A stretch of 64,000 bases of DNA. It comes from Actinomycetota bacterium (lineage in GTDB: Bacteria > Actinomycetota > Acidimicrobiia > Spongiisociales > UBA4744). The stretch covers positions 12,793-76,792 of the forward strand of contig JAADGS010000092.1 of NCBI GenBank assembly GCA_013152275.1. Reading direction: 5' to 3'. Positions 2-61,279 of this stretch are shown one piece after another. The notes beneath the pieces are model-generated. The model did not search any database. It was not told the origin of the DNA and saw only the letters and a list, made by a program, of their open reading frames with translations. Each line of letters opens with the position of its first letter. The stretch's first letter is position 1. Position numbers and translations under genes: made by a program.

Positions 2-274
2 GTGGCGATCGGAGCGGTCAACGCGTCGGTCCCTCACGCCGAACTCGAGTCCTTCGCTCTCGAATGGGCGGCCGAGATCAACGCGAAGAGCCCCACGTCC
101 ATCCGGATGCTCAAGTACGCGTTCAACCTCCCCGACGACGGACTCGTCGGCCAGCAGCTCTTCGCGGGCGAGGCCACCAGGCTGGCCTATGGGACCGAGG
201 AGGCCGAAGAGGGGCGGGATGCCTTCCTCGAGAAACGCAAACCCGATTGGTCCCCCTTCCCCCATCACTTCTGA
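2..274 (+). CDS. menB: 1,4-dihydroxy-2-naphthoyl-CoA synthase (crotonase superfamily), C-terminal fragment; 5' end lies outside the window
   Basis: The translation ends ...MLKYAFNLPDDGLVGQQLFAGEATRLAYGTEEAEEGRDAFLEKRKPDW, a typical MenB C-terminus. It lies immediately upstream of menA, and its stop codon is 1 nt from the menA ATG. Confidence 0.8.
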   Translation: MAIGAVNASVPHAELESFALEWAAEINAKSPTSIRMLKYAFNLPDDGLVGQQLFAGEATRLAYGTEEAEEGRDAFLEKRKPDWSPFPHHF

Positions 275-275
275 G

Positions 276-1172
276 ATGACGCTGGATCCCACGACGAAGA
301 GCGGTGCCTGGTACCTGGCTTCGCGACCGCACACCCTGCCTGCGGCCCTCGCCCCCGTGGCGGTCGCCGCAGGGCTCGCCATCGGCGACGGTGCCTTCAG
401 ATGGGGACCGCTCATCGCAACGGCGATCGGCGCTCTCGCCATCCAGGTGGCCGCGAACTTCACCAACGATCTCTCGGATGCGCGCAAGGGCGCGGACAAC
501 GAGGACCGGATCGGCCCGCAACGTGCCGTCGCGTCCGGTCTGCTCACCGAACGTGCGATGGAGCTCGGCACCTGGGTCGCGTTCGCCGTCGCGACGGTCG
601 CAGGGGTGTATCTCTTTGCGATCGCAGGGTGGGTGATCGTGATCGTCGGGGTCGCATCGATCCTCGCGACCCTCGGCTATGTGGGCGGGCCGAAACCCTA
701 CGGGTACCGGGGCCTCGGCGAGGTGTTCGTGTTCGTGTTCTTCGGTCTCGTCGCGACCGTCGTGTCGCGTTTCGTGTATGACCGTGCGGCACCACTGGAC
801 GCCTGGCTGTTGGCGATCCCGATGGGGTTCCTGGTCACCGCCATCCTGGTGGCGAACAACGTCAGAGACATCGAGACGGACCGTAGCGCCGGCAAACGCA
901 CCCTTGCGGTGATCATGGGGCGAGATCGCACGAGGATCCTCTTCGACGTGCTCGTGTGGGGATCGTTCGTCCTGATCGGCGTGTTCGCACTCGCCGGATG
1001 GACGCCGGCCTGGACGGCGCTTGCACTGGTCACCGCTCCGCTCGCGATTCCCTTGACGGGCACGATCCATCGCGAGACGTCGGGGCCCGCGTTGATCGGC
1101 GTGCTGAAGGGGGTCGCCCGTCTCGACCTGGTGTTCGGCATTCTGGTGGCCATCGGCGCCGCAATCGGCTGA
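276..1172 (+). CDS. menA: 1,4-dihydroxy-2-naphthoate polyprenyltransferase (UbiA superfamily, about 8 TM helices)
   Basis: ATG at 276 is in frame with ORF 189..1172. The protein is a polytopic membrane protein with the UbiA-type motif NDLSDARKGADNEDRIGPQR and follows menB. The longer ORF start at 189 overlaps menB and is unlikely. Confidence 0.85.
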   Translation: MTLDPTTKSGAWYLASRPHTLPAALAPVAVAAGLAIGDGAFRWGPLIATAIGALAIQVAANFTNDLSDARKGADNEDRIGPQRAVASGLLTERAMELGTWVAFAVATVAGVYLFAIAGWVIVIVGVASILATLGYVGGPKPYGYRGLGEVFVFVFFGLVATVVSRFVYDRAAPLDAWLLAIPMGFLVTAILVANNVRDIETDRSAGKRTLAVIMGRDRTRILFDVLVWGSFVLIGVFALAGWTPAWTALALVTAPLAIPLTGTIHRETSGPALIGVLKGVARLDLVFGILVAIGAAIG

Positions 1173-1317: not shown

Positions 1318-3477
1318 GTGATGACCCGATTGAGATATCTCGTGGTCGGCGTTCTCGGATTGTTCCTCATTCTGTTGGTCGCAGGGTGCGACAACAAGGC
1401 CGCCGAGACGACCACGACGACGAGTCCACCACAGACCACAACCACAGCCACCGCTACCACAGCCCCGCCGACCGTCGAGCCGGCGGTGGAGATACCATTC
1501 CTCGCCGACTGGCAGGGATCCGGCCACGCCGATGCGAGCGCCGAGGCGTTCAATCACTGGAACGATGACGACCCGGCGATCATCCCCGCCCGCTGCGCGA
1601 AGTGTCACAGCACACCGGGCTTCCAGGACTACGTCGGCGCCGACGGCACCGCATTCGGGACGGTCGATGCCGACGCTGCGATCGGGACGACGGTGGAGTG
1701 CGTCGCCTGTCACAACGACGCGACCCTGAAACTCGACCATGTGACGATGCCTTCCGGTGTCGAACTCACCGGCCTCGACGCCGAGGCGCGATGCATGACC
1801 TGCCACCAGGGTCGGGCATGGAAGGGCACCGTGGACGAAGCCGTTCAGGGAATCGATGAGGACACGGTCTCCGAAGACCTCGGCTTCATCAACATCCACT
1901 ACTTCGCAGCGGCAGCGACCAAGTACGGGACCGTGACGAAGGGCGGCTACGAATACGACGGCAAGTCGTACGACGCGGTCTTCGCACATGTGGACGGATA
2001 CTCGACGTGTATCCAGTGCCACGATCAACACACGCTCGAACTCAAGGTCGACGAGTGCTCGACGTGCCACGCGGGAGTGTCGTCGGTCCAAGACCTCGAG
2101 AACATCCGGATGGCCGGCTCGGAAGTCGATTACGACGGCGATGGCGACATCACCGAAGGCATCGCCTCCGAGATCGAAGGTCTGCAAGAGAAGCTGTACG
2201 CAGCAATCCAGGCGTACGCCTCGTCCAAGGTCGGCACACCGATCGTCTACGCCGCAGAGTCGTACCCGTACTTCTTCGTCGACACGAACGCGAACGGCGA
2301 CGCCGACGGGGAGGAAGCCTCCTACGGCAACAAGTATGCGAGCTGGACCCCGCGACTCCTGAAGGCGACCTACAACTATCAGGTCTCCATCAAGGATCCC
2401 GGCGGGTATGCCCACGGCGGCAAGTACATCATCGAGCTGCTCGTCGACTCGACCGACGACCTGAACTCGGTGCTGTCATCGCCGATCGCCATGACCGACG
2501 TGCACCGCATCGACGCCGGCCACTTCGCAGGATCCGAAGCGGCGTTCCGCCACTGGGACAAAGACGGTGAGATCCCGGCGTCGTGCAGCAAGTGCCACTC
2601 GGCGACCGGTCTCCCGCTCTTCTTCAAAGAAGGCGTCACGATCGCGCAGCCGGTTTCCAACGGCCTCTTGTGCTCGACCTGCCACAGCGATCTGTCGACC
2701 TTTGATCGATACGAGGTTGCTTCGGTGACCTTCCCGAGTGGGGCAAAGATCGACAGCGGCAGCAACAACATGAACCTGTGCATGACGTGTCACCAAGGCA
2801 GGGAGTCGACCGTGTCGGTCGACAAGCTGATCGGCGACACGAAGGCCGATGTGGTGAGCGACTCGCTCCGGTTCCTGAACGTGCACTACTTCGCGGCCGG
2901 AGCGACGATCTTCGGAGACCAGGCGAAGGGCGCCTACGAGTACGCGGGCAAGACCTATGTCGGCTACAACGAGGATCACCCGCTGAACCAGTGCACCCAG
3001 TGTCACGATCAGCACGCCCTGGAAGTCCGGGTCGACAAGTGCTCGGCCTGTCACGGCACGGTCGCCACCGAGGACGACCTGCACGCCATCCGCATGTCCA
3101 GCATCGACTACGACGGTGACGGCGACACGACCGAAGGCATGTGGGACGAGATCCAAACCATGCGGGCCGACCTGCTCGCCGCCATCCAGGCCTACGCGGC
3201 CAAGACGGCGGGGGCCGAAGCGATCGTCTACGACCCGAACTCGTACCCGTACTACTTCATCGACACGAACGGCGATGGAGTGGCCGGCGCCGACGAGGCG
3301 AACTACGGAAACCGCTACGGCACATGGACACCCCGCTTGCTGCGGGCCGCGTACAACTATCAGTACGCGACGAAGGATCCGGGCGGGTTCGCCCACAACG
3401 GCGAGTACATCGTCCAGACCCTGTACGACAGCATCAAGGACGTCGGCGGCGATGTCTCGGGGATGACCCGACCGTAG
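1318..3477 (+). CDS. Decahaem c-type cytochrome lipoprotein with internal tandem duplication (two pentahaem modules, each followed by a ~150 aa haem-free domain)
   Basis: Signal peptide with lipobox LVAGC, then a Thr/Pro-rich linker (ETTTTTSPPQTTTTATATTAPPTVEP). There are 10 CxxCH motifs: CAKCH, CVACH, CMTCH, CIQCH, CSTCH, then CSKCH, CSTCH, CMTCH, CTQCH, CSACH. The two halves are clearly paralogous (e.g. ...RCMTCHQGRAWKGTVDEAV... versus ...LCMTCHQGRESTVSVDKL...; YPYFFVDTNANGD versus YPYYFIDTNGDGV). RBS GGAGG lies 8 nt upstream of the ATG. Confidence 0.9.
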   Translation: MMTRLRYLVVGVLGLFLILLVAGCDNKAAETTTTTSPPQTTTTATATTAPPTVEPAVEIPFLADWQGSGHADASAEAFNHWNDDDPAIIPARCAKCHSTPGFQDYVGADGTAFGTVDADAAIGTTVECVACHNDATLKLDHVTMPSGVELTGLDAEARCMTCHQGRAWKGTVDEAVQGIDEDTVSEDLGFINIHYFAAAATKYGTVTKGGYEYDGKSYDAVFAHVDGYSTCIQCHDQHTLELKVDECSTCHAGVSSVQDLENIRMAGSEVDYDGDGDITEGIASEIEGLQEKLYAAIQAYASSKVGTPIVYAAESYPYFFVDTNANGDADGEEASYGNKYASWTPRLLKATYNYQVSIKDPGGYAHGGKYIIELLVDSTDDLNSVLSSPIAMTDVHRIDAGHFAGSEAAFRHWDKDGEIPASCSKCHSATGLPLFFKEGVTIAQPVSNGLLCSTCHSDLSTFDRYEVASVTFPSGAKIDSGSNNMNLCMTCHQGRESTVSVDKLIGDTKADVVSDSLRFLNVHYFAAGATIFGDQAKGAYEYAGKTYVGYNEDHPLNQCTQCHDQHALEVRVDKCSACHGTVATEDDLHAIRMSSIDYDGDGDTTEGMWDEIQTMRADLLAAIQAYAAKTAGAEAIVYDPNSYPYYFIDTNGDGVAGADEANYGNRYGTWTPRLLRAAYNYQYATKDPGGFAHNGEYIVQTLYDSIKDVGGDVSGMTRP

Positions 3478-3495
3478 GGACCGCAACCCAAGCCG

Positions 3496-3523
3496 GAGGG
3501 GCCCGACGTATGTCGGGCCCCTC
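3496..3523. terminator. Perfect GC-rich hairpin (12-bp stem GAGGGGCCCGAC / GTCGGGCCCCTC, 4-nt loop) downstream of the decahaem gene; likely intrinsic (I-shaped) terminator
   Basis: Inverted repeat read directly from the sequence, 19 nt after the stop codon. There is no T-tract, as is common in high-GC actinobacteria. Confidence 0.6.
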
Positions 3524-3716
3524 TCGACAGGGAGCGCTCCCCTCCACGGGACGCCTCTCTCGTTCCATCCTTATGGTTCCGGTCCTGTGTCATCAGCACA
3601 CCTGATCAGCCTCTCTGATATACGACCATGAATGGGTCTTTTGGCCCTAGCCCAACGGGACGTCGACAAGAGAGTATCCCTTACAGATCCTGAGGATCGG
3701 AAGGAGGGACGGAGAT

Positions 3717-4913
3717 ATGAAACGATCCCTACTGCTGCTGGTAGTCGTTTTTGCAATGATTCTCGCCGCGTGTGCCGGACCGGCCGGCGACACAGGACCT
3801 GCAGGGCCCGCGGGGCCCCAAGGACCTGCCGGGCCGGCCGGACCTGCCGGACCCGCGGCGCCTGCCGCCGCAACCGTCGGAGCCGACTACGTGGGAACAC
3901 AGACGTGTGCCGGATGCCATCCGGACAACGCCGAGAAGTTCCTCAAGTCGGGACATCCGTACAAACTGAACAAGGTGGTCGACGGACAACCGCCGACGTA
4001 CCCGTTCACCGAGATCACCCAGGTTCCTGAGGGGTACACCTGGGACGACATCACGTACGTGATCGGTGGGTACAACTGGAAGGCCCGTTTCATCGGACTC
4101 GACGGTTTCATCATCACCGGCGACGAAAACGCCAAAACGCAGTACAACCTGCCGAACCCGACCATCGGGCTCGGAGACAATTGGGTCGCGTACCACGCGG
4201 GTCAACAGAAGGCGTATGACTGCGGTCCTTGTCATACGACGGGATACCGGCCCGAAGGCCATCAGGATGGACTCGAGGGGATTATCGGAACCTGGGCGGA
4301 GCCCGGGATCCAGTGTGAAGAGTGCCACGGCCCTGGAAGCAACCACGTGGCGGATCCGTATGGAGTCGCGATGAAGGTGGACGTGTCGTCCGAGGCATGT
4401 ACTTCATGTCACCGACGCGGGTCGACCCTGACGATCGACGCCAAAGGAGGATTCATCAAGCACCACGAGCAGGGTGAGGAGCTGTTGCAGACAAAGCACG
4501 CGTCCCTCAGCTGTGTCACGTGCCATGATCCGCATACAGGCGTCATCGCGCTACGTAAGGCCGGAGAGGACTTCGCAGCGAACTTCCCGTGTCAAACCTG
4601 CCACGAGGAACAGGCCGACTACCAGAAGTCGACCGTCATGTCGGGCTTCGTCAAATGCATCGACTGTCACATGCCACGGATCGTCAAGTCCGCGGTCGGT
4701 GATCCCGCTGCATGGACCGGCGACATCCGAACACACCTGTTCGCCATCGACCCCAACCTGACCAACCAGTTCTCCGAGGACGGCTCGGTAGCCAACTCGG
4801 CGATCACGCTGGATTGGGCCTGCAAGTCGTGTCACCGTGACGGTGGTACGGCGAGCGTCAAGACGGACGAGGAACTGAAGGCGACGGCCGAGGGATACCA
4901 CTCGAAACCGTAA
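3717..4913 (+). CDS. Octahaem c-type cytochrome lipoprotein with collagen-like (GPAGP)n N-terminal linker
   Basis: Signal peptide with lipobox ILAACAG, then GPAGDTGPAGPAGPQGPAGPAGPAGPAAPAAA. There are 8 CxxCH motifs: CAGCH, CGPCH, CEECH, CTSCH, CVTCH, CQTCH, CIDCH, CKSCH. RBS GGAAGGAGG precedes the ATG. Confidence 0.9.
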   Translation: MKRSLLLLVVVFAMILAACAGPAGDTGPAGPAGPQGPAGPAGPAGPAAPAAATVGADYVGTQTCAGCHPDNAEKFLKSGHPYKLNKVVDGQPPTYPFTEITQVPEGYTWDDITYVIGGYNWKARFIGLDGFIITGDENAKTQYNLPNPTIGLGDNWVAYHAGQQKAYDCGPCHTTGYRPEGHQDGLEGIIGTWAEPGIQCEECHGPGSNHVADPYGVAMKVDVSSEACTSCHRRGSTLTIDAKGGFIKHHEQGEELLQTKHASLSCVTCHDPHTGVIALRKAGEDFAANFPCQTCHEEQADYQKSTVMSGFVKCIDCHMPRIVKSAVGDPAAWTGDIRTHLFAIDPNLTNQFSEDGSVANSAITLDWACKSCHRDGGTASVKTDEELKATAEGYHSKP

Positions 4914-4936: not shown

Positions 4937-4965
4937 GAGAGGCCCGGGCAAGCCCCGGGCCTCTC
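4937..4965. terminator. GC-rich hairpin (GAGAGGCCCGGG-caagc-CCCGGGCCTCTC) followed by a T-rich stretch, downstream of the octahaem gene; likely intrinsic terminator
   Basis: 12-bp perfect inverted repeat read from the sequence, 24 nt after the stop codon. Confidence 0.6.
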
Positions 4966-8569: not shown

Positions 8570-10135
8570 TCAATACCCCTGCGCCGGGGTGTGACACTGC
8601 GTGCACTTGATCTGTTTCCACGCGTCTCCGATGTCGACAGGATGCTGGAAGGCAAGACCGGCCACGCTGTTCTCGATGTCGGCGAGGTTGTCCGAGGGGC
8701 CCTGGGCGGCGATCGTATGACACGAGTTGCACGAAGAGGAGATCCGTGTCCCGTCATCGCTCTCCAGATCCGAGAAGTGGCACCGGAAACAGCCGTCGTT
8801 GACAAAGTGGCTGAGGTTGTCCTCGCGGGCCCGGTAGTCGGTCTTCATCTCCGGGAAGAAGTTGGCGTCGTAGATGCGCACCAGGGTGTCGGCGGCCTTC
8901 TCGACCTGGCCCTGATCCACCTTGCCGGGATACTGCTTCGCGTAGTAGGCCAGGAGCCCGGACCGGATCGCCTCGTCTGCCTCCGGTTTCGTGTCATATG
9001 GCGCGTTGAGCAAGGTCAGCCCCTGCCAGCGGACGAACGGGAGGTCCTTGGAGATCGTGCCCTTGGTCATCTCGAGGTTGATCGCCGTCGCCGGAGGGAG
9101 GAAGTCGTGACTGGGCCGGTTGTGGCAGTCCATGCAGTCCAAGATACGAACTTCGACGTCGGGCGAATCGGGATCGACCACCGCATCGGGACGCTTGAAG
9201 ACGGTGACCTTCCCCGTCTCGCCGTCCGTGAACCGCACCCAGATCATCTGCTGGCGCTTCTTGTCGGTCGTCACGTATTCGATCTTGTTCTCGCCGAGCA
9301 TGTGCCAGTGGATGCCCTCCTGCTTGCCGGTTCGGGGGTTCCCCCCACCGACTTTCATGAGCAGACTGATCGTCCACGGCGAGTTCGCCTCGTTGGTCCG
9401 GTAGTACGTTTTCGTGACGAGCTTCTCGCCATAGAACTGATCGGGCCAGTGGCATCCCTCACAGGTCTGTTGAGCAGGTCGCAGACTCGTCACCGGTGTC
9501 GGCACGGGACGGTCGTACGAGTTGGTCAGCACCGCCACCACCTGGCGGATACCGTCGATCTTGGCGCGCACGAAGAACGATGCGCCGGGGCCGATGTGGC
9601 ACTCTGCACAGGCGACGCGAGCGTGCGGAGACTGCTGATAGGTGACCCACTGTGGGTTCATCACCGTGTGGCACGCCTCCCCGCAGAACGTTGCGGAGTC
9701 GGTGACTTCGTACCCCTTGTAACCACCCCAGGCGACCGTGCCGAGCAACATCGCCGTGAGGATGCCGAACAGCGCAAGGGAGCGCATGTACCGGGGGTTC
9801 GACGGCTCGAACCGAAGGTTGAACCGGACGTGTTCTCCGCGCCGGCGAGCCCTGACGACCTGGATGCGGATGGCGAGCAGGAAGAGGATGAGGCCGAGCA
9901 GAACCACCGAGGGAAAACCGATGAATGTGACGAGTCCTCGATACGGGTTGCCGGCGGGTGAACTCAGGTCGACGAATGCGAGGATGGCGAACCCGAGTAT
10001 CCCGGCGACGACGAGCGCGCCGCCCACCGCAGCCAAAGGATGGCGGTAGAGGCTCCTGCCCTCGACCGCCTCGGCCTTGGTCTCGCTCTCCCTGTCACTC
10101 ACGCTCGATCCCTCCTCAACCGATCTCTGATCCAC
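8570..10135 (-). CDS. Membrane-anchored heptahaem c-type cytochrome (N-terminal TM helices plus 7 CxxCH); ImcH-like putative quinol oxidase
   Basis: Two N-terminal hydrophobic helices (ALVVAGILGFAILAFV; VTFIGFPSVVLLGLILFLLAI; SLALFGILTAMLLGTVAW). The 7 CxxCH motifs are CGEACH, CAECH, CEGCH, CMDCH, CFRCH, CNSCH, CTQCH. It is the last gene of the minus-strand cytochrome operon. Confidence 0.85.
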   Translation of the reverse strand: MDQRSVEEGSSVSDRESETKAEAVEGRSLYRHPLAAVGGALVVAGILGFAILAFVDLSSPAGNPYRGLVTFIGFPSVVLLGLILFLLAIRIQVVRARRRGEHVRFNLRFEPSNPRYMRSLALFGILTAMLLGTVAWGGYKGYEVTDSATFCGEACHTVMNPQWVTYQQSPHARVACAECHIGPGASFFVRAKIDGIRQVVAVLTNSYDRPVPTPVTSLRPAQQTCEGCHWPDQFYGEKLVTKTYYRTNEANSPWTISLLMKVGGGNPRTGKQEGIHWHMLGENKIEYVTTDKKRQQMIWVRFTDGETGKVTVFKRPDAVVDPDSPDVEVRILDCMDCHNRPSHDFLPPATAINLEMTKGTISKDLPFVRWQGLTLLNAPYDTKPEADEAIRSGLLAYYAKQYPGKVDQGQVEKAADTLVRIYDANFFPEMKTDYRAREDNLSHFVNDGCFRCHFSDLESDDGTRISSSCNSCHTIAAQGPSDNLADIENSVAGLAFQHPVDIGDAWKQIKCTQCHTPAQGY

Positions 10136-10201
10136 GCTAGTCGATCGGCCCTCACCGGCCTCACGACCGACCGTCTCTTCTTGTCGAACCTGTTCCTCGA
10201 A

Positions 10202-11461
10202 TCAGCCTTGCGGCGCGCCGGCGCCGATCCATGCCTTCACCAACGCCAGGTCCTCGTCCGTGAACTTGCCGAAATGCGACCCGTCCCCCACTTTGACGAT
10301 CACATGGCTCGCATCCGCATCACCGGCCACGAACCCGGGCTCACCACTATCACCCCCGGCCAGCAACCCCGCATACGACGTAACGTCCAGACCGGAGGCC
10401 GGCGCACTGCCACCGTGACATGACCCGCACGCCGCCTCGAACACCGCCGCCACACCGGAGTTCCATGTCACGCCGGCAGAAGCCGCCGTGGTCGAGGGCG
10501 TCGCAGCCGACGTGGTCGCCGACGCGGCCGCGGTCGTCGTCGGAGCCGCGGTCGTCGGTGGAAGGGTCGTCGTGGGAGGCGTGGTCGACGGTGGAAGGGT
10601 CGTCGTCGGCAGCGGCGTGTAGATGGGTCCGGCGAGCGGCGAAGGCGCGACGGTCGTGATCGCCGTCTGCTCGAACGTCACGAACTCGTAGACCCCCATC
10701 AGCATCACGGCGGCCAGGACGGTGAAGGCCGGCCAGTACCTGAGCGCTCGGTTGCGTCGCTCCTCGGGATCGGTCTCGATCCGATCCGTTTCCGCGTCGA
10801 TCGTGGCCAGTTCGAGCGGGTGGAGCTCTTTCATCTGGGCACGCGACAGGTACCCGGTGAAGATCGAAGGGTTGAAGTGCCGCCAATGGACGTCGTAGGA
10901 GTGCCAGACGATGATGGCCAGCACGGCGAGGACCGCCTCCCAACCGTGGGCCGCCTTGGCCGCCGGCACGAAGACCCCCGGGAGGAACCGGGTGGTGGCG
11001 ATCGGATTCCAGAGCATGAAGCCGGTCACCGCCATCAGTACGGTGCCCCACACCAGCGACCAGTACTCCATCTTCTCGCCGACCGTATACCGGCCCTCGG
11101 GAGGCGGGCCCGACGCCAAACCGAGGTTGAACCTGATCCAGCCCCACGCGGCCGACAGGTCCGCCTTCCCCGGGATCAGCGAATGGGGTCTGCGGAGCAC
11201 GAAGCGCTTGTAGCCCAGCACACCGAGGTGGTACACGAGCGAGAGCAGCAGAATGGTTGCGAGAATGTGGTGGATTCTGCGGGTGTAGTCGATCCCTCCG
11301 AAGAGCCCGATGATCCAGTCCGAGAACCAGCGGTCGGCGTATTTCTGCACCAGTCCGGTGATCGCCAGACCGGTGAACGTGATGACCTGGACGGCGTGCT
11401 CGATCCGGTCCGACACCGTGAACCTCAGGATCTTCTCGTCGGGACGCGTCGTCTCAGTCAT
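10202..11461 (-). CDS. Dihaem cytochrome b (FdnI/HydC/CybH-like membrane domain) fused via a Pro/Thr-rich linker to a C-terminal monohaem cytochrome c domain
   Basis: The N-terminal ~250 aa has 4-5 TM helices with conserved His residues (RIEHAVQV, RRIHHILATI, AAHGWEAV...VWHSYDVHWRH). The linker reads PLPTTTLPPSTTPPTTTLPPTTAAPTTTAAASATTSAATPSTTAASAG. The C-terminal domain carries CGSCHG. The start overlaps the nonahaem gene end by 8 nt. Confidence 0.85.
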   Translation of the reverse strand: MTETTRPDEKILRFTVSDRIEHAVQVITFTGLAITGLVQKYADRWFSDWIIGLFGGIDYTRRIHHILATILLLSLVYHLGVLGYKRFVLRRPHSLIPGKADLSAAWGWIRFNLGLASGPPPEGRYTVGEKMEYWSLVWGTVLMAVTGFMLWNPIATTRFLPGVFVPAAKAAHGWEAVLAVLAIIVWHSYDVHWRHFNPSIFTGYLSRAQMKELHPLELATIDAETDRIETDPEERRNRALRYWPAFTVLAAVMLMGVYEFVTFEQTAITTVAPSPLAGPIYTPLPTTTLPPSTTPPTTTLPPTTAAPTTTAAASATTSAATPSTTAASAGVTWNSGVAAVFEAACGSCHGGSAPASGLDVTSYAGLLAGGDSGEPGFVAGDADASHVIVKVGDGSHFGKFTDEDLALVKAWIGAGAPQG

Positions 11462-12554
11462 GTCGTCGCCTCCTGAGGCGAGCGGCGAGCCTTCTCCGCA
11501 CGTCGAGTCCCACGGCGAGGAGCATCGCGCCGATCACGAGCGGGATGAGGATCTTGTAGAACATGTTCACCCAGTACACGAGCGGGGCCTCGGTGGTGCT
11601 CGGCGCATAGTGACTCAGCCATGCGTCGGGGAAGTTCGCCGTGGCATCCGGGTGGCACCGCCGGCACGTGCCGAGCAGATTCTTCTTGTACACGGAGCTG
11701 TCCGTGTCGCTGGGCGCCTTGATGTCATGAACACCGTGACAATCGACGCACACGGGCTTGTTCGTGTCCTGACCGGGAGCCAGCTTCTCGAAGAGAACGA
11801 CCGTCGTGCCGTGAAAGTCCGACAGGTACGAACTGAACACGTTCGTGGAGATGCCGTACTTGTCCATCAGGGCCTTGTTGGCGTGACAGTCCGCGCAGAT
11901 CTGCGGCGAGAACAGCCGGAACGGCGAATCGTCATGCGGACCCTTCACGTCATGGACGCCGTGACAGTCCGTGCAGGTCGGGACGTCCGGGTTGCCGGTC
12001 GTGAGCGCCTCCCCGTGCACGCTGTCCTCGTAGGCGTTGTAGATCTCCGAATGACATTTCCTGCACATCAGCGGAATGTTGGTTCGAGGCTCGCCGGGCG
12101 GTTGGACGTTGTGGGAACCGTGGCAGTCGGTGCAGACGGCCGCCTCCGTGACGCCGGCCTGGCGTGCGAGCTCGTGGTCGCTGTCGCGAGTCCCCGTGTA
12201 CTCGGAGTAGTGGCACGTCGCACAGGACGTATACATCTGTAGCGTGAAGCCGCGGCGGCTCTCGGCGGTGATCGGAGCGTGCGGATACGTGGAGATGTCC
12301 GTGTGACAGAGAACGCACGCCACATCGAGCTTGCCGTGAACCGAATCGGCGTACTCGTGACCGTCGACGGCAATGTCGAGCGTCTCCCCCGAGGGCAGTG
12401 GTATTCCCAGCGAGCTTCCCTCGTGACAGGAGAGACAGTAGGAGTTGTCCCACCGAGGGTCGGTCTGCGCGGCTGCCCGAGATTGCCCACCGAGCAGGAT
12501 CGCCGTACCGATGATCAGTGCACCGAGTACAACGATCCTTCTACATCTTTGCAT
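11454..12554 (-). CDS. Nonahaem c-type cytochrome, secreted, with a C-terminal transmembrane anchor
   Basis: Sec signal peptide (cleavage near AAAQT). The 9 CxxCH motifs are CLSCH, CVLCH, CATCH, CTDCH, CRKCH, CTDCH, CADCH, CVDCH, CRRCH. The C-terminal hydrophobic helix ILIPLVIGAMLLAVGL is followed by RRRLAARLRRRRHD. Confidence 0.9.
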   Translation of the reverse strand: MQRCRRIVVLGALIIGTAILLGGQSRAAAQTDPRWDNSYCLSCHEGSSLGIPLPSGETLDIAVDGHEYADSVHGKLDVACVLCHTDISTYPHAPITAESRRGFTLQMYTSCATCHYSEYTGTRDSDHELARQAGVTEAAVCTDCHGSHNVQPPGEPRTNIPLMCRKCHSEIYNAYEDSVHGEALTTGNPDVPTCTDCHGVHDVKGPHDDSPFRLFSPQICADCHANKALMDKYGISTNVFSSYLSDFHGTTVVLFEKLAPGQDTNKPVCVDCHGVHDIKAPSDTDSSVYKKNLLGTCRRCHPDATANFPDAWLSHYAPSTTEAPLVYWVNMFYKILIPLVIGAMLLAVGLDVRRRLAARLRRRRHD

Positions 12555-14022: not shown

Positions 14023-14775
14023 TCAACCGAGAAACCGCTCGATCTCGAGAGCGACCTTGCGGGGCGCCTCCCCGACGACGGCATGTCCTGCGTCCTCGAC
14101 GACCACGAGACGGCCTCCCGTGGCGGCGGCCACCCGTTCGGCGATGGCGACATACCGGGGATCCCGCTCTCCGGCGATGACCAGCACCGGCATTTCCAGC
14201 TCTTCGAGGCGATCCCCGTACCACGGCTGTGCCCCCTGGCCCATCCCCCGCAGGGCACCGGCGATGCCTCGAGCGGTGTTCTCCAGCCGAAGCGCCACGT
14301 CCGCTTCGAGCCACGCGGCACCCCTTCGGTGAAGACCATCGAAGATCGGCCGGTTCATCCAGCGTTCGAAGAAGGACTCCAGGTCCTCACTCTCGATGAC
14401 ACGCGCCAGTGCCTCGTCACGGGTCTGCCGGACGAGGCGGCGCCGCTCGTCGGCGATCCCGATTCCCGTAGAGATCAGGATGAGGTGCGAGACGGCCTGC
14501 GGATGTTCGAGCGCGACACCGAGCGCGATGCGCCCGCCTTGCGAGTAGCCGAGGAGCGCTCGACCACCCGTCACGGCGGCGACCGCCGCGATCGCCGCGG
14601 GGAAGGTTGCCGGAAACGCTGCGGCTCCTCCATGACCGGGAAGGTCCGGAGCCAGGATCTCGCGTCCGGTGATCGCTGCCAGTTCCGCGAACATGCCTCC
14701 GTGCTGCGTGAAGCCGTGCAGCGCGACGATGGCAGGCGGCCGACCGGCGAATCTTCTGACGGGGAGTCCTTCCAT
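14023..14775 (-). CDS. Alpha/beta-hydrolase; positional MenH/BpoC-like (SHCHC synthase candidate), divergent from menD
   Basis: Nucleophile elbow GYSQGG. HG oxyanion motif in IVALHGFTQHG. Catalytic His near the C-terminus (DAGHAV). Synteny with menD resembles mycobacterial bpoC-menD. Confidence 0.65.
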   Translation of the reverse strand: MEGLPVRRFAGRPPAIVALHGFTQHGGMFAELAAITGREILAPDLPGHGGAAAFPATFPAAIAAVAAVTGGRALLGYSQGGRIALGVALEHPQAVSHLILISTGIGIADERRRLVRQTRDEALARVIESEDLESFFERWMNRPIFDGLHRRGAAWLEADVALRLENTARGIAGALRGMGQGAQPWYGDRLEELEMPVLVIAGERDPRYVAIAERVAAATGGRLVVVEDAGHAVVGEAPRKVALEIERFLG

Positions 14776-14783
14776 GGACTGTA

Positions 14784-16433
14784 TTGTTGCTGCTCGTGAG
14801 CAACTCCGCCTACAGAGCGACCGCCGTGCTCGTAGCCGCCCTCGCCCGCCTGGGTCTGCGGCATGCGTGCCTCACGCCGGGATCGAGGAACACGCCGCTG
14901 TCACTCGCATTCGCCGAGCACCCCGACGTCACCGATTGGATCCACCACGACGAGCGGTCGTCGTCCTTCTTCGCCCTCGGGCTCGCCAAGGCGACGAGGG
15001 CACCGGTTGCCGTGGTGACCACCTCCGGAACCGCCGCTGCGGAGCTCTTCCCTGCCGCCGTGGAAGCCCGCCACGGGACGGTGCCCCTCCTGCTGATCAC
15101 CGCGGATCGTCCCCCGGAACTTCGCGGTATCGGCGCTCCCCAGACGATCGACCAGGTCGGCATGTTCGGGGAGATGGTGCGCCGGTCGACCGACGCGATG
15201 CTCACCGAACTGGGTCCGGACGGAATCACCGATCTGGCCGTCGCGACGTGGAACGAGGCGATCCGGCGCCCGGGCGGCCCGGTCCACCTCAATCTCGGCT
15301 TCCGCGAACCGTTCGTTCCCACCGATCTCACCGTTGCCGAGGTCGACGTGCCCGCGGCCGACCCTGTCGGAAAGACGCCGGATGCGGGTTCCCTCCGGAC
15401 GGCTGCAGCGCTGCTGTCGGGCAAGCGAGCGCTCGTCGCCGCCGGCCCCCTCGACCATCCGGGTTTCACCGATGCCGTCACCGCACTGGCCGCCCAGGCC
15501 GGCTGGCCGATCCTGGCCGATCCGCTCAGCCAGCTGCGCGCAGGCCCCCACGATCGATCGCACGTGGTCACCTCCGGGGACGCACTCTTTCGCACGGACC
15601 GCATCCCGGGACCGATCGAAGCCGTGTTGCGCTTCGGGGCGCCTCCGACCTCCAAGGCGTTCATGACCTGGCTGGAGGGACATCCGCACGTCCCCCAAGT
15701 CGTCGTGGACGAGGTCGGCGGCCGGGACCCTTCCCGGACGGCACGGCTGATGATCACCGCCGATCCCGTCGAGTTCGCCGAAGCCCTGTCCGTCGAGCCT
15801 GTGGCCGCGGACTGGACGCACGCCTGGATGGATGCCGATGGACACGCCCGGGACGCCCTGGCGGGGATGGTGTTCCCCTCCGGGCCTGCCGTCGTGCAGA
15901 CCCTGGCGGAGCGACTCCCGGCCCGCTCGAACCTCTACGTCGCCTCCTCGATGCCGGTGAGAGATGTCGACCTGTTCTTCCCCTCGATCGACCGGCCGAT
16001 CCGACTGCTGGCGAACCGCGGCGTCAACGGCATCGATGGTCTCGTCTCTTCGGGTCTGGGCGCCTCCGCCACCGGCACGACGACGTTTGTCCTCACCGGC
16101 GACTTGTCCGCTCTGCACGACCTGGGGGCGCTCGCAACCGCTGCACGGCTTCGCCTGCCGGTCACGATCGTCGTGGTGAACAACGACGGCGGTGGCATCT
16201 TCTCGTTCCTCCCGCAGGCGAAGCTGCCGCGCCATTTCGAGCGGGTGTTCTCCACCCCGCACGGTCTGTCCTTCGTGCCCGTGGCCGAGGCGTTGGGTCT
16301 GCGCGCCGTCCACGTCGACCGCCGCGATCGGTTCGTTTCGGCGCTCGGTGAACCGGGGCCGTTGCTCATCGAGGTGACGACCGATCGCGATGCGAACGTC
16401 CGGATCCACGAGGAGGCGCTCGCGAGACTCTGA
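14784..16433 (+). CDS. menD: 2-succinyl-5-enolpyruvyl-6-hydroxy-3-cyclohexene-1-carboxylate synthase (ThDP-dependent)
   Basis: N-terminus ...NSAYRATAVLVAALARLGLRHACLTPGSRNTPL aligns with MenD N-termini. The ThDP-binding region GDLSALHDLG...VVVNNDGGGIFSF is present. The longest ORF starts at TTG 14784; GTG at ~14796 is an alternative. Confidence 0.85.
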   Translation: MLLLVSNSAYRATAVLVAALARLGLRHACLTPGSRNTPLSLAFAEHPDVTDWIHHDERSSSFFALGLAKATRAPVAVVTTSGTAAAELFPAAVEARHGTVPLLLITADRPPELRGIGAPQTIDQVGMFGEMVRRSTDAMLTELGPDGITDLAVATWNEAIRRPGGPVHLNLGFREPFVPTDLTVAEVDVPAADPVGKTPDAGSLRTAAALLSGKRALVAAGPLDHPGFTDAVTALAAQAGWPILADPLSQLRAGPHDRSHVVTSGDALFRTDRIPGPIEAVLRFGAPPTSKAFMTWLEGHPHVPQVVVDEVGGRDPSRTARLMITADPVEFAEALSVEPVAADWTHAWMDADGHARDALAGMVFPSGPAVVQTLAERLPARSNLYVASSMPVRDVDLFFPSIDRPIRLLANRGVNGIDGLVSSGLGASATGTTTFVLTGDLSALHDLGALATAARLRLPVTIVVVNNDGGGIFSFLPQAKLPRHFERVFSTPHGLSFVPVAEALGLRAVHVDRRDRFVSALGEPGPLLIEVTTDRDANVRIHEEALARL

Positions 16434-17695: not shown

Positions 17696-18487
17696 TTACG
17701 GAGCCACGAAGGACACGATCTGCGCTGCGACGAGGTCCGGCCGCTCCATGGGAGCGAAGTGCGAGGCGTTCGGCAGTATCTCGAACCGTGCATTCGGAAT
17801 CAGCGCGGTGAACTCGGCGATGTAGTCGGCGGTGAATGCGGCGGATCGTTCACCGGCGAGCACCAGAACGGGCAGGTCCAGTTCCCCCAGGCGCAAGTAG
17901 GCGCCGTGAGTGATACCACCGCGGTACACCTCCGCCTCGACCTCCGGCCGGCACTTCAGCCGCCAGACACCGTCTCTTTCGACGAGACCTCCGCGCACAT
18001 AGGCTTCGAGGGCACGCCGATCCCACGATGCGAACGGTCTGCGGTAATGCTCGACCGCCGCATCGATACTCTTGAATCCGTCCCTGCGCCGTAAGGCGCC
18101 CTGGACAAGCAGAGACAGCTCTCTCCTCCCGACCGCGAGCGGGAAGATCACGGGCTCGATCAGAACGAGCCCGGCGAACCTGCCCGGAGCCAGCAACTCG
18201 GCCATGGCGAGCGCCGCACCACCCATCGAATGTCCGACACCGACGACCGGCTCGGTGATCCCCGAGATGACCTCGAGCCCGTGCCTGGCGAAGTCCCACC
18301 AGTCGACCGGAAAGGAGGACAACGGCTCGGCGTCACCGTGTCCGGGCGCATCCCAGGCGATGATCGATCGCTCCTCCCCGGCGGCGCGCAGTTCGGTGAC
18401 CACCGGCGCCCACACCTCCTTGCAGAACCCCGTTGCGTGAGCGAGGGCAAGCCGGCCGTGCCCGGATGCGGGCCAACGCCGGGTCAA
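17696..18487 (-). CDS. Alpha/beta-hydrolase (second MenH-like candidate)
   Basis: Nucleophile elbow GHSMGG, HG motif in WDAPGHG, C-terminal His (NASHFAP). It lies upstream of menF in the same orientation. Confidence 0.65.
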   Translation of the reverse strand: MTRRWPASGHGRLALAHATGFCKEVWAPVVTELRAAGEERSIIAWDAPGHGDAEPLSSFPVDWWDFARHGLEVISGITEPVVGVGHSMGGAALAMAELLAPGRFAGLVLIEPVIFPLAVGRRELSLLVQGALRRRDGFKSIDAAVEHYRRPFASWDRRALEAYVRGGLVERDGVWRLKCRPEVEAEVYRGGITHGAYLRLGELDLPVLVLAGERSAAFTADYIAEFTALIPNARFEILPNASHFAPMERPDLVAAQIVSFVAP

Positions 18488-46602: not shown

Positions 46603-49071
46603 TCAGCCCACACTCTCGCGAGAGATGACCGTCACACCACGGCCCAGATCGGTTCCGAAACCCCGCAACAGCCCGTACACGCGTTCGGGCGGATTGAAGG
46701 AGTCCTCGACGATCCGAGAGGAGTCGTCGAGAGCGTCATTGATGGCCGAAGAGATCGTGTGCAAAGGCGCGCCACCGCCTTCTCCCATGCCCTTGGCGCC
46801 GGTCCCCGTGAACGGTGAAGGCGACTCCAGGTAGTCCGTGGCGATCGGTGGTACGTCTACCGCCCTCACCGCGTGGTAGTGGAGGAAGTTGGCGTTGAGG
46901 AGCTGCCCGTCCTCGTCGTATTCCAGCGACTCTTGCAGCGCCGCCCCGATTCCCTGAGCCGTTGCCCCATGGACCTGACCTTCGACGATCAGCGGATTGA
47001 TTCTCGTACCGCAGTCGTCCACGGCGGCATATCGGAGGATCTCGACTTTCCCGGTCTCCTCGTCTATCTCGATCACGCACGCGTGGATCTGTATTGCGTA
47101 CGTCAAGGTCAGATTCCCGAACTTGCGGTCGAGATCCGGCACTTCGAACGGCGGCACATAGTTGTACCGGCAGTTCAGCGTGACACGCTCCAGGAGATCC
47201 GCCGGCAGGCCGGCGTTGTTCGAATAGATCATGTTGGCGATGCCGATGAACGGGATCATCGCATCGTGATTGTCGATGACCCGAGCGTTGCCGTCCACCA
47301 ATTCGATCTCATCCGGCGGCACGCCCAGTGCAACTGATGCGACATCGAGGATCTCGCCCCGAAGCTTCTCCACCGCCCCGATCACGGCGTTGATGCCCGT
47401 CACGGCGAACTGGCTGGCGTAGGTGCCGGAGAACCCGACGTAGGCGCTCCTCGACTGGTCGAATCCGGGGAACACGTGCACCTGGTCGGGTGCCATGCCC
47501 AGGACGTCGGCTGCGACCTGCGCCGCGGTCGTCTCGTGGCTCTGCCCCTGCGGCGTCGTCCCGATGGCGATCGTGACTTCTCCATAGAGGTCGAGCCGCG
47601 CGATCGCCGCCTCTCCGTTGCCGGAGAATGGAAGGTCCTTGTTGATGATGCGCGCCTGACCAAAGTTGTTGGTGCCCGAGTCGAGCGTGCTCCCGATGCC
47701 GATGCCGATTCGCTTGCCGGTCCCGCGGGTCGTTGCCTGAAGCTCGCGAGCCTCCGGGTAGTCGATCAGTTCCAGCACCCTCTCCAGCGCACGCGGGAGG
47801 TCACCCGAGTCGTACACACACCCGTTCGGTGTCTCATACGGGTAGTCCTCGGGCTGGACGTAGTTCAGCTTGCGGATCTCGACCGGGTCGAAGGACAGTT
47901 CCTTCGCCACGACATCGATGATGCGCTCGAGCATCCACAGATGCTGATGCCTCGAATACCCGCGGCTCGGCACCGTCGGACACTTGTTGGTGAGGCTCTG
48001 TGAGTAGTTGATGTCGAAATGCTTCATCGTGTAGCAGCCCGGCACCACCTGGCTCCAGATGACCGCTCCGAGCGGTTCGTAGTGAAGGTATGCGCCGCCG
48101 TCGTCCACCACGCGTGCACGAACGCCGAGAATCCTTCCATCGGCCATCACCGGCACCTCGATGTCGAGGAACCAGCGTTCATTCCCGTGTCCGGCCGACT
48201 GAAAGTGCTCCGTGCGTGTCTCGGTCCACTTGACCGGACGGCCCGCCTTGCGCGACAGCAACGCCAGCGCACCGGTCTGGGTATAGATGTTGATCTTGAT
48301 GCCGAATCCGCCTCCGATGTCCTGGGACCGGAAATCGAACTGATCGATCCCCACACCCAACGAAGGGCCGATCACCATGGCACCGAACAGCGGCATCTGA
48401 TTGTTCGAGATCACCTCGATGCGGTCGGTGCCGGGATCCCAGTTGATCACCACACCGAAACACTCGAGGGGAGCCGCCGAGAATCGGTGGAAGTGCAGCT
48501 TGTCGATCTTGACGACGTGATCCGCATTCTCGAGAGCCCAGTCGATGTCGCCGTAGACATAGTCGCCTTGCCAGGAGATGTTCGAACCGATCGACTCGTG
48601 GAGGATCGGTGCGTCCGGCTCCTGGGCGGCCGGCGCGTCCGTGACGACCGGCAGCTGCTCGTATTCGACCTCGACGAGATCGGCCGCATCCCGGGCGACC
48701 TCCCTCGATTCGGCCAGAACCAGTGCGACCGGGTCGCCTTGATAGCGCACCTTGTCGACCGCGAGAAGGTACTCCTCGAGCTTTCCCCCCGGTTCGGACG
48801 CTATCTGGAACAGGGGCGTGGTCATCGCCTTGACTTCGTCGCCGGTCAGCGTGGCGTACACACCGGGCATCGCCTCCGCCGCCGACGTGTCGACCGAGAT
48901 GATGCGGGCGTGGGCGAACGGGGAACGAACGAACTGCGCATACCCCATTCTGCGCATGCCCTCATCGTCCACGAACGAGCCCTTGCCCTCCAACAACCTG
49001 CGGTCTTCTTTTCGTGGATAGCTCTGGCCAAGCCATGTCTTGCGATCTTGCTGAACACCACTCGTGGTCAT
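46603..49071 (-). CDS. Xanthine-dehydrogenase-family molybdopterin-binding large subunit (CoxL/CutL-like; substrate unknown)
   Basis: 822 aa. Ald_Xan_dh_C plus MoCoBD domains. GGGFG motif (QDIGGGFGIKIN). No canonical form-I VAYRCSFR or form-II AYRGAGR active-site loop is recognisable. Confidence 0.85.
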   Translation of the reverse strand: MTTSGVQQDRKTWLGQSYPRKEDRRLLEGKGSFVDDEGMRRMGYAQFVRSPFAHARIISVDTSAAEAMPGVYATLTGDEVKAMTTPLFQIASEPGGKLEEYLLAVDKVRYQGDPVALVLAESREVARDAADLVEVEYEQLPVVTDAPAAQEPDAPILHESIGSNISWQGDYVYGDIDWALENADHVVKIDKLHFHRFSAAPLECFGVVINWDPGTDRIEVISNNQMPLFGAMVIGPSLGVGIDQFDFRSQDIGGGFGIKINIYTQTGALALLSRKAGRPVKWTETRTEHFQSAGHGNERWFLDIEVPVMADGRILGVRARVVDDGGAYLHYEPLGAVIWSQVVPGCYTMKHFDINYSQSLTNKCPTVPSRGYSRHQHLWMLERIIDVVAKELSFDPVEIRKLNYVQPEDYPYETPNGCVYDSGDLPRALERVLELIDYPEARELQATTRGTGKRIGIGIGSTLDSGTNNFGQARIINKDLPFSGNGEAAIARLDLYGEVTIAIGTTPQGQSHETTAAQVAADVLGMAPDQVHVFPGFDQSRSAYVGFSGTYASQFAVTGINAVIGAVEKLRGEILDVASVALGVPPDEIELVDGNARVIDNHDAMIPFIGIANMIYSNNAGLPADLLERVTLNCRYNYVPPFEVPDLDRKFGNLTLTYAIQIHACVIEIDEETGKVEILRYAAVDDCGTRINPLIVEGQVHGATAQGIGAALQESLEYDEDGQLLNANFLHYHAVRAVDVPPIATDYLESPSPFTGTGAKGMGEGGGAPLHTISSAINDALDDSSRIVEDSFNPPERVYGLLRGFGTDLGRGVTVISRESVG

Positions 49072-52725: not shown

Positions 52726-56286
<3,561 letters not shown>

Positions 56287-61231: not shown

Positions 61232-61279
61232 AAACCCTCCTTGTAGCCTTGATTCTGGCACGATCGGGGATTCGTACGG

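Follow-up and report, generated by a model that had tools for sequence, protein, structure and literature searches.

As a general rule, c-type cytochromes of bacteria that lack an outer membrane are anchored in the membrane by a lipid or a helix, as with cytochrome c551 (CccB) of Bacillus subtilis, and electron export from the membrane through the wall in such cells is poorly understood, with few characterised cases (Thermincola and Carboxydothermus). OcwA of Thermincola potens (Protein Data Bank (PDB) entry 6i5b) and OmhA of Carboxydothermus ferrireducens (6qvm; an S-layer cytochrome according to its PDB entry) are extracytoplasmic multihaem cytochromes at the cell surface of Gram-positive hosts, which lack an outer membrane, and are proposed steps of electron transfer across the cell wall (PMC6703420, PMC7829351). 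We analysed a stretch of 64,000 nucleotides from an Actinomycetota genome (assembly GCA_013152275.1, contig JAADGS010000092.1, positions 12,793–76,792; hereafter the window), in which positions 3717–4913 of the forward strand encode a predicted lipoprotein cytochrome whose head finds its best sequence and fold matches in OcwA and OmhA, and which carries a collagen-like stalk directly after the lipobox. We propose, with a probability of about 0.55, that a lipid-anchored and probably trimeric collagen-like rod of ~8 nm holds an OcwA/OmhA/MccA-related head off the membrane in an extracytoplasmic electron-transfer chain. The host is probably a single-membrane actinobacterium of an Acidimicrobiia-like kind. 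OcwA-type proteins carry nine haems, two of them five-coordinate with distal His pairs, and end in a bundle of three helices; OmhA has eleven haems. The window protein has eight CxxCH motifs and one invariant His-His pair. We saw no report of a collagen-like segment in OcwA or OmhA, and the OcwA paper (PMC6703420) was not found to speak of a membrane anchor or of a lipoprotein, a separation that is drawn from published descriptions and not from native N-termini.

Other described systems share single features with this protein. BclA of the Bacillus anthracis exosporium, Scl1 and Scl2 of Streptococcus pyogenes and Lcl of Legionella also have uninterrupted Gly-X-Y repeats with Pro-rich X positions and no hydroxyproline. 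BclA is attached by its N-terminus and ends in a globular head, and together with the collagen rod between them, which varies in length, these parts determine how long the surface filaments are; BclA and Scl thus serve as examples of collagen rods that can fix distances at a prokaryotic surface. Unlike the window protein, they are adhesins or spore-coat fibres of 17 to > 90 triplets without a redox domain, anchored by LPXTG or the exosporium basal layer and not by an N-terminal lipid, and the window protein scores far under the cut-offs of their NCBIfam models. Eukaryotic membrane and defence collagens (types XIII and XVII, class A scavenger receptors/MARCO, C1q and collectins) combine an N-terminal anchor or bundle with a short stalk (~11–60 triplets) and trimeric C-terminal heads; they share their topology with the stalked cytochromes by analogy and not homology, and their helices depend on hydroxyproline and dedicated trimerisation domains. 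Anchored cytochromes of the CccB kind are small and monohaem, with short non-collagen linkers. The nearest analogue is PgcA of Geobacter sulfurreducens, a predicted lipoprotein trihaem cytochrome with Pro-rich repeat tethers that takes part in extracellular electron transfer (PMC5732950). PgcA differs in that its repeats are of the Pro-Thr dipeptide type, lie between haem domains, have no Gly-X-Y periodicity and gave no special structure in circular dichroism, while its host has two membranes and the protein is released by processing. In the searchable literature we found no description of collagen-like repeats combined with multihaem cytochromes, and neither the collagen stalk nor the way it goes almost without exception with anchoring in several cytochrome families appears to have been described there.

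The open reading frame (ORF) at 3717–4913 (+ strand; stop codon 4911–4913) encodes 398 amino acids (aa) behind a ribosome-binding site, AAGGAGG (3701–3707, +; 9 nt 5′ of the ATG), which we read from the sequence and which is kept in the orthologous loci L081 and L001. The N-terminus, MKRSLLLLVVVFAMILAAC, has a charged n-region (K2 and R3), an uncharged hydrophobic core (LLLLVVVFAMI) and the lipobox L16-A17-A18-C19 (signal peptide with lipobox 3717–3773, +; Cys codon 3771–3773). It matched a regular expression of the PROSITE PS51257 type (Lys/Arg in the first 7 residues, hydrophobic core, [LVI..][AST..][AGS]-Cys, Cys at 15–35). The protein is on this basis a predicted lipoprotein, in which Cys19 would receive diacylglyceryl and signal peptidase II would cleave. 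Ala20 is followed by nine uninterrupted triplets (aa 21–47; 3777–3857, +), GPA GDT GPA GPA GPQ GPA GPA GPA GPA, a collagen-like Gly-X-Y run with Pro-enriched X. The Pfam model Collagen (PF01391) gave 17.8 bits against a gathering threshold of 27.2 because the run is short, and is on record for many orthologs with longer runs. An Ala/Pro-rich junction, APAAATVG (3858–3881, +), leads from the stalk to the octahaem head (aa 56–398; 3882–4913, +), which is covered by Pfam MtrC/MtrF II-IV, c3_2, c7 and c554 matches, and 16 aa separate the end of the run from the first CxxCH (family median 12). The eight CxxCH motifs begin at aa 64, 169, 200, 228, 266, 292, 314 and 369 (nt 3906–3920, 4221–4235, 4314–4328, 4398–4412, 4512–4526, 4590–4604, 4656–4670 and 4821–4835, +). 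An earlier, sequence-only reading of this DNA had described a lipoprotein cytochrome with eight haems whose lipobox is followed at once by a collagen-like segment, as we find it here, and the N-terminus passed the lipobox check; the pentameric formula (GPAGP)n given there has to be replaced by a period of 3.

We assessed how general the stalk is by searching with the head alone (aa 53–398), which returned 3603 proteins at E ≤ 1e-5, the best 120 being 60–89% identical, and by recovering 80 genomic loci. N-termini were read from the proteins and from in-frame upstream DNA, removal of duplicates left 190 distinct N-termini, and a run was counted from at least 4 Gly-X-Y triplets. The loci were labelled mostly as metagenome-assembled genomes (MAGs) of Chloroflexota (Anaerolineae, Ardenticatenaceae, Promineifilaceae, Caldilineae) or Acidimicrobiia, with a minority labelled Bathyarchaeia, Spirochaetota, Zixibacteria or Gemmatimonadetes, all these labels being those of MAG bins. 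A lipobox was found in 143/190 N-termini and a run in 141 of these 143 (138, plus 3 with a slightly relaxed lipobox; 2 without). N-termini with a transmembrane helix and no Cys, including those of the Bathyarchaeia-labelled contigs L004 and L005, all had a run (11 with, 0 without), whereas those with an ordinary cleavable signal peptide, Spirochaetota- and Planctomycetota-labelled members among them, never did (0 with, 15 without); truncated calls with no recognisable signal were mostly without one (2 with, 19 without). Judged by these counts, the family has conserved the stalk wherever its members are anchored in the membrane, with few exceptions, and the split between lipobox and signal peptide follows the Gram-positive tethering rule. 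Orthologs that lack the linker altogether, with no relation to envelope type, would have refuted the earlier reading; instead they keep it, and its presence tracks anchoring type almost perfectly. The Spirochaetota- or Planctomycetota-labelled members have a plain signal peptide and are stalkless. The run stands in frame in ~150 homologs and is therefore not due to chance. Its length was 4–30 triplets among the 190 N-termini (median 12, 5th–95th percentile 7–16), its first residue lay 1–4 after the Cys and its last a median of 12 before the first haem motif. At the level of 50%-identity clusters, the head module occurred in 8-, 16- and 32-haem architectures, and ~30 of 150 representatives combined a lipobox with Gly-X-Y, in runs of up to 41 triplets.

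Several variants were seen among these homologs. The transmembrane forms of one subgroup, on contigs binned as Bathyarchaeia (L004 1508–2767, L005 1–1221, P0013, P0020, P0027 and others), begin with the helix SEKNTLYLAVVAIVIS..., have no lipobox Cys and continue with 10–12 triplets and an octahaem head; in L004 and L005 this corresponds to the type II layout of eukaryotic membrane collagens. The adjoining genes (TrmB and an M19 peptidase, in L005 also an aminotransferase) are not decisive on archaeal origin. Stalks in L069 (5641–7068), L070 (2184–3620) and P0147 are rich in Lys and Asp (GDKGDKGDKGDPG..., 15–26 triplets) in place of the usual Pro and Ala, which suggests collagen stabilised by charge pairs; the 'Enterobacteriaceae' label on the MAG of these stalks is implausible. 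Five distant members, all 50%-cluster representatives (P0155, P0186, P0203, P0211, P0234), have a short run followed by acidic Cys/Asp-rich repeats, CWDLDxDGxxD..., which resemble calcium-binding repeats, and then the haem domain.

The same N-terminal arrangement was found on cytochromes unrelated to the octahaem head. A separate search of a hexahaem family, whose head is not really similar to that of the octahaem protein (24.6 bits at best), gave a run of 5–16 triplets in 76/76 members with a lipobox and in 0/10 with a plain signal peptide. Other cytochromes that adjoin orthologs in Chloroflexota loci bear the same lipobox-Gly-X-Y module, as do proteins with 10 CxxCH (L021), with 13 and 30 CxxCH (P0166 and P0141) and with 5 CxxCH and class-I cytochrome c domains (L084). 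Since it is joined to hexahaem and to 5-, 10-, 13- and 30-CxxCH cytochromes, the lipobox-collagen stalk is a portable anchoring module for extracytoplasmic cytochromes. The order of lipobox, Gly-X-Y rod and haem head can be recognised from sequence and is present in hundreds of sequences of the sets examined. It recurs in four or more cytochrome families unrelated to one another, in genomes with the labels Chloroflexota, Acidimicrobiia and Bathyarchaeia. The stalked proteins are anchored cytochromes of bacteria labelled as phyla that are usually regarded as having one membrane, and of some archaeon-labelled contigs. Across ~0.9 Mb of loci, which are biased to cytochrome neighbourhoods, all in-frame runs with 6 triplets or more belonged to ORFs rich in CxxCH, antisense artefacts aside; a protein-database search with only signal peptide, lipobox and run gave 11 fragments of 52–83 aa and nothing usable. 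Stalk lengths within single genomes were 13/15, 15/14, 7/7, 13/9 and 13/13/9 triplets, from few pairs.

In two genomes the collagen-stalked hexahaem gene lies directly 3′ of Alternative Complex III genes (pentahaem, molybdopterin-like, NrfD, ActD and cytochrome c subunits). One has two tandem hexahaem paralogs of 13 triplets each (L084, 10001–11062 and 11548–12615) and the other a single copy (L085, 10001–11026). This position suggests that the stalked hexahaem cytochrome accepts electrons from Alternative Complex III.

The head was compared with known cytochromes by sequence and by predicted structure. With phmmer it matched OcwA at E = 1e-11 and OmhA at 5.7e-10, and Foldseek returned E ≤ 1e-3 only for OmhA, OcwA and MccA (4rkm), with TM-scores of 0.26–0.45. 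Both similarities are significant, and the head is related to the OcwA/OmhA/MccA/c554 clade. The OcwA alignment covers aa 48–255 only, i.e. ~200 N-terminal residues. Pfam PF22113 (MtrC/MtrF domains II/IV) was above its cut-off (47 bits vs 30), while neither the NCBIfam OmcA/MtrC model TIGR03507 (24.5 vs 209.3 bits) nor the DmsE/MtrA model TIGR03508 (35.6 vs 192.2) was reached; no curated NCBIfam family attained its cut-off, the best being UshA-like (54.7 vs 275 bits). Eight His outside the motifs are invariant (H80, 210, 249, 250, 261, 273, 340 and 395), which by number is enough for eight bis-His haems. From this we had drawn the argument that all haems are bis-His and the head a pure relay, and dropped it as firm evidence, since His pairs that do not serve as ligands are retained beside the open haems of OcwA and OmhA.

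The head might instead serve mainly in catalysis, reducing nitrite, hydroxylamine or sulfite in the manner of MccA, NrfA or the side activities of OcwA, with the stalk as a mere tether. Its closest structures do belong to the NrfA/MccA/OcwA superfamily, one fragment in the JGI database is labelled as a nitrite reductase c552 subunit, and OcwA reduces nitrite and hydroxylamine (PMC6703420). The invariant pair H249-H250 also recalls the distal, non-ligand His pairs at the open five-coordinate haems of OcwA and OmhA (PMC9250108). Yet the invariant His would suffice to make every haem bis-His, there is no CxxCK motif in the protein, no NCBIfam enzyme model came near its cut-off, and the neighbouring genes encode multihaem and quinol-oxidising cytochromes and not nrf- or mcc-type accessory proteins. 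We regard a primarily catalytic head as unlikely, though some catalytic role is possible. MccA, which gave the best TM-score, is presumably a homotrimer; this is not used as evidence here.

Whether the stalk would form a collagen helix or a simple linker was assessed from its composition and codon changes. Over 1920 triplets, in which Gly at every third position follows from the construction of the runs, Pro made up 58% of X and 17% of Y positions, and Y was mainly Ala, Pro, Gln or Glu. Such positional asymmetry of Pro between X and Y is typical of bacterial collagens. Collagen peptides and the Scl, Lcl and BclA models gave weak matches only. Between the window and L001, an 83%-identical ortholog, 19/28 Gly-X-Y codons differ, 18 synonymously and 1 non-synonymously, and between the window and L081 there are 7 synonymous and 2 non-synonymous differences; the rest of the protein shows 103 synonymous vs 58 non-synonymous changes (L001) and 66 vs 42 (L081). 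As nearly all changes in the stalk are synonymous, it is the peptide and not the DNA that is conserved, more tightly than the haem head. By this comparison the Gly-X-Y codons are under strong purifying selection, and a generic spacer would not need such tight conservation of its peptide.

These data bear on the view that the Gly-X-Y segment is a monomeric, extended or flexible Pro-rich tether giving reach without trimerisation or rigidity. The run is short, with 9 triplets here and down to 4 in homologs; in P0098 it has degraded to a generic PQE-rich linker; and decahaem orthologs encoded nearby have Thr-rich, (VEVTR)n or CPxCP spacers. The (PT)n tethers of PgcA are also a precedent for a lipoprotein cytochrome with Pro-rich repeats (PMC5732950). 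A generic linker, however, needs no Gly at every third residue, and the register is unbroken over 1920 triplets with its unequal share of Pro in X and Y; non-synonymous change is almost absent, and the same strict pattern arose or persisted in unrelated cytochrome families. A monomeric tether is on balance rather improbable, although it is the strongest competitor of the collagen helix. Taken as a triple helix, the window stalk would measure 7.7 nm (27 residues × 0.286 nm), and the family's 5th–95th percentile ~6–14 nm; a parallel triple helix would fit the geometry, with three lipid anchors at one end and three heads at the other. We consider it slightly better than an even chance that the stalk is a trimeric collagen triple helix.

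For the anchored rod as a whole, we envisage that the octahaem cytochrome would leave the cell by the Sec route and receive a lipid on Cys19, which would hold it on the outer side of the cytoplasmic membrane. Its nine triplets would wind into a parallel homotrimeric collagen triple helix whose near end bears three lipid anchors and whose far end, ~7.7 nm from the membrane, bears three haem heads with 24 haems. The rod would stop the head from diffusing away, a need that soluble periplasmic homologs of double-membrane bacteria would not have, and would fix the height of the head in the wall zone, where the head may relay electrons between the membrane quinol dehydrogenases encoded nearby and distal acceptors or donors, such as the upstream decahaem lipoprotein or external substrates. 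The stiff spacer of fixed distance put forward in the sequence-only reading is in keeping with the narrow length range (7–16 triplets), but not the polyproline II conformation that it assumed, as Gly-X-Y points to a three-chain collagen helix. Similarly, where that reading had the head within or beyond the peptidoglycan, a stalk of ~8 nm is too short to make a position outside a thick wall as likely as one in the zone next to the membrane.

Several observations weigh against the anchored trimeric rod. Unaided, a run of nine triplets that lacks hydroxyproline would make a marginal triple helix, there is no obvious trimerisation domain adjoining the run, and OcwA is a monomer or dimer in solution (PMC6703420). 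The neighbouring decahaem family has non-collagen spacers, so a spacer of any chemistry may suffice. Two lipobox homologs, P0006 and P0098, have an ordinary acidic or Pro-rich linker in place of the run, and two stalked loci from one Zixibacteria-labelled bin do not fit a strict single-membrane rule. For the head, the AlphaFold2 prediction, made for the monomer only, is of moderate confidence (mean pLDDT 68.9, haem core < 50), and the TM-scores are low because the haem core of the model is of low confidence; the H249-H250 pair, with its resemblance to those at five-coordinate haems, also counts here.

If the rod is a triple helix, it would fix a stoichiometry of three heads and set an electron-transfer station at a height of ~6–14 nm, and the uses of prokaryotic collagen would widen from adhesion and spore fibres to bioenergetics. 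More tentatively, at somewhat less than even odds, true triple helices, anchored by lipid or, on the archaeon-labelled contigs, by a membrane helix, would yield trimeric 'bouquets' (24-haem for this protein), maybe with mixed trimers between stalked families of one genome, as a prokaryotic counterpart of membrane collagens and C1q. In archaea and bacteria with one membrane they would act as a ruler for a ~6–14 nm electron-transfer step between the membrane and the S-layer or wall.

The DNA of the stalk was examined for signs of instability, as the earlier reading had noted an imperfect GC-rich tandem repeat and suggested that its length could vary by slippage. Tandem Repeats Finder agreed on the former, with periods of 9, 18 and 45 at 71–80% matches. 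Taken further, such a repeat could be a contingency tract prone to slippage, with lengths that differ from cell to cell or strain to strain and so tune or phase-vary the protein, to which the GC-rich imperfect repetition and the family range of 4 to 41 triplets in whole-triplet steps lend some colour. The units are, however, written in varied synonymous codons, and no exact repeat is longer than 11 nt. The identical 398-aa protein is encoded in two other samples, JGI 3300003886 with 7 point differences and SRR25425416 with 2, so that three independent assemblies have the same repeat number, and relatives at 89% and 83% identity have 9–10 triplets. Contingency repeats are near-perfect and differ in number between strains, which is not the case here. 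From these comparisons the stalk has changed length by whole triplets over long evolutionary times and the tract is not hypervariable, and we consider slippage-driven variation very improbable.

Gene calling raises a different objection, that the N-terminus is untranslated, the true start lies downstream and Gly-X-Y is a by-product of GC-rich DNA. The 89%-identical P0001 was indeed called as a 350-aa protein starting after the repeat, 34/120 hexahaem entries begin at a Met just past the run, and the antisense strand also reads as a Gly/Pro/Ala repeat. Against this, the signal peptide, lipobox and run of L081 lie in frame upstream of its called start, behind the conserved ribosome-binding site; ~150 homologs keep the N-terminus at the protein level despite differing codons; and a haem protein needs an export signal. 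A downstream start is the least probable of the alternatives. Gene callers often truncate these genes at the repeat (L081 5743–7053, P0001, P0279 and similar), with an antisense ORF called over the repeat of P0001. Because of such truncation, metagenome surveys of exported cytochromes may misclassify them as lacking a signal peptide.

The genes around the octahaem cytochrome were examined for possible partners. Upstream lies a decahaem lipoprotein cytochrome (1318–3477, +; 719 aa, 10 CxxCH, lipobox LVAGC) with a Thr/Pro-rich spacer after the lipobox. Orthologs of the decahaem gene adjoin octahaem orthologs in 20 loci, and the decahaem lipoprotein is likely a partner in the same chain. The decahaem orthologs (L001, L014, L019, L031-L063, L084, L087) all have a lipobox, but their repetitive spacers differ from that of the window: most Chloroflexota loci have (VEVTRxVE)n, whereas L063, L084 and L087 have CPxCP repeats. 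On the opposite strand, 8570–12554 holds an operon that is a candidate quinol-oxidising module, consisting of a nine-CxxCH cytochrome (12554–11454, −), a cytochrome b561 (FdnI-like) fused to a PSCyt1 cytochrome c domain (11461–10202, −) and a NapC/NirT-type multihaem cytochrome (10135–8570, −). It is collinear with L009 7275–12295, which lies directly 3′ of an octahaem ortholog (also in L008 and L010), and it resembles a split form of the CbcL-type quinol oxidase of Geobacter. In Chloroflexota the octahaem ortholog typically heads a cluster; next come genes for a cytochrome of 9 or 13/14 haems, a membrane subunit of the cytochrome b561 type, and a cytochrome that is either decahaem or NapC/NirT-fused. 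Menaquinone genes bracket the cytochrome cluster of the window (2–1172 and 14784–16433; the C-terminus of MenB, a MenA-like UbiA-family prenyltransferase and a MenD-like TPP enzyme). Because of the cytochrome neighbours and flanking menaquinone genes, the neighbourhood points to an extracytoplasmic electron-transfer chain fed by the menaquinol pool. In L081 the octahaem gene directly follows MenB-MenA, without a decahaem gene. Alpha/beta hydrolases are encoded at 14023–14775 and 17696–18487.

In the flanking DNA, a GC-rich terminator-like hairpin without a U tract stands 3′ of the upstream decahaem gene (3495–3524, +; −34.2 kcal/mol, z = −6.0), and a 12-bp GC terminator-like hairpin, also without a U tract, follows the octahaem stop codon (4937–4965, +; −30 kcal/mol, z = −5.3). 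With strong GC hairpins on both sides, the octahaem gene is suggested to be a separate transcription unit; the first hairpin was not called by the consensus terminator scan. About 70 nt 5′ of the start codon, the motif ACCATGAATGGGTCTTTTGGCCCTA (3625–3649, +) is nearly invariant among the window, L081 and L001, where the surrounding non-coding DNA has diverged and the upstream gene is different, and it may be a regulator site or promoter element (candidate promoter/operator). Consensus sigma-70 promoter and terminator scans gave no match, and Rfam gave a sub-threshold chance match only, with none for ACCATGAATGGGTCTTTTGGCCCTA. The antisense strand over the stalk (3571–3900, − and 3791–3862, −) reads as a Gly/Pro/Ala repeat of period 3 (AGPAGPAGP...) inside a 109-aa ORF, which we rejected as a gene and attribute to a compositional artefact of GGN-CCN-GCN codons.

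Farther along, the window encodes a molybdenum hydroxylase of the aldehyde oxidase/xanthine dehydrogenase type (46603–49071, −), a Pat-like GNAT/acyl-CoA synthetase fusion (58502–61261, −) and a pyruvate:ferredoxin oxidoreductase (52726–56103, +), the last of which would fit an organism capable of anaerobic metabolism.

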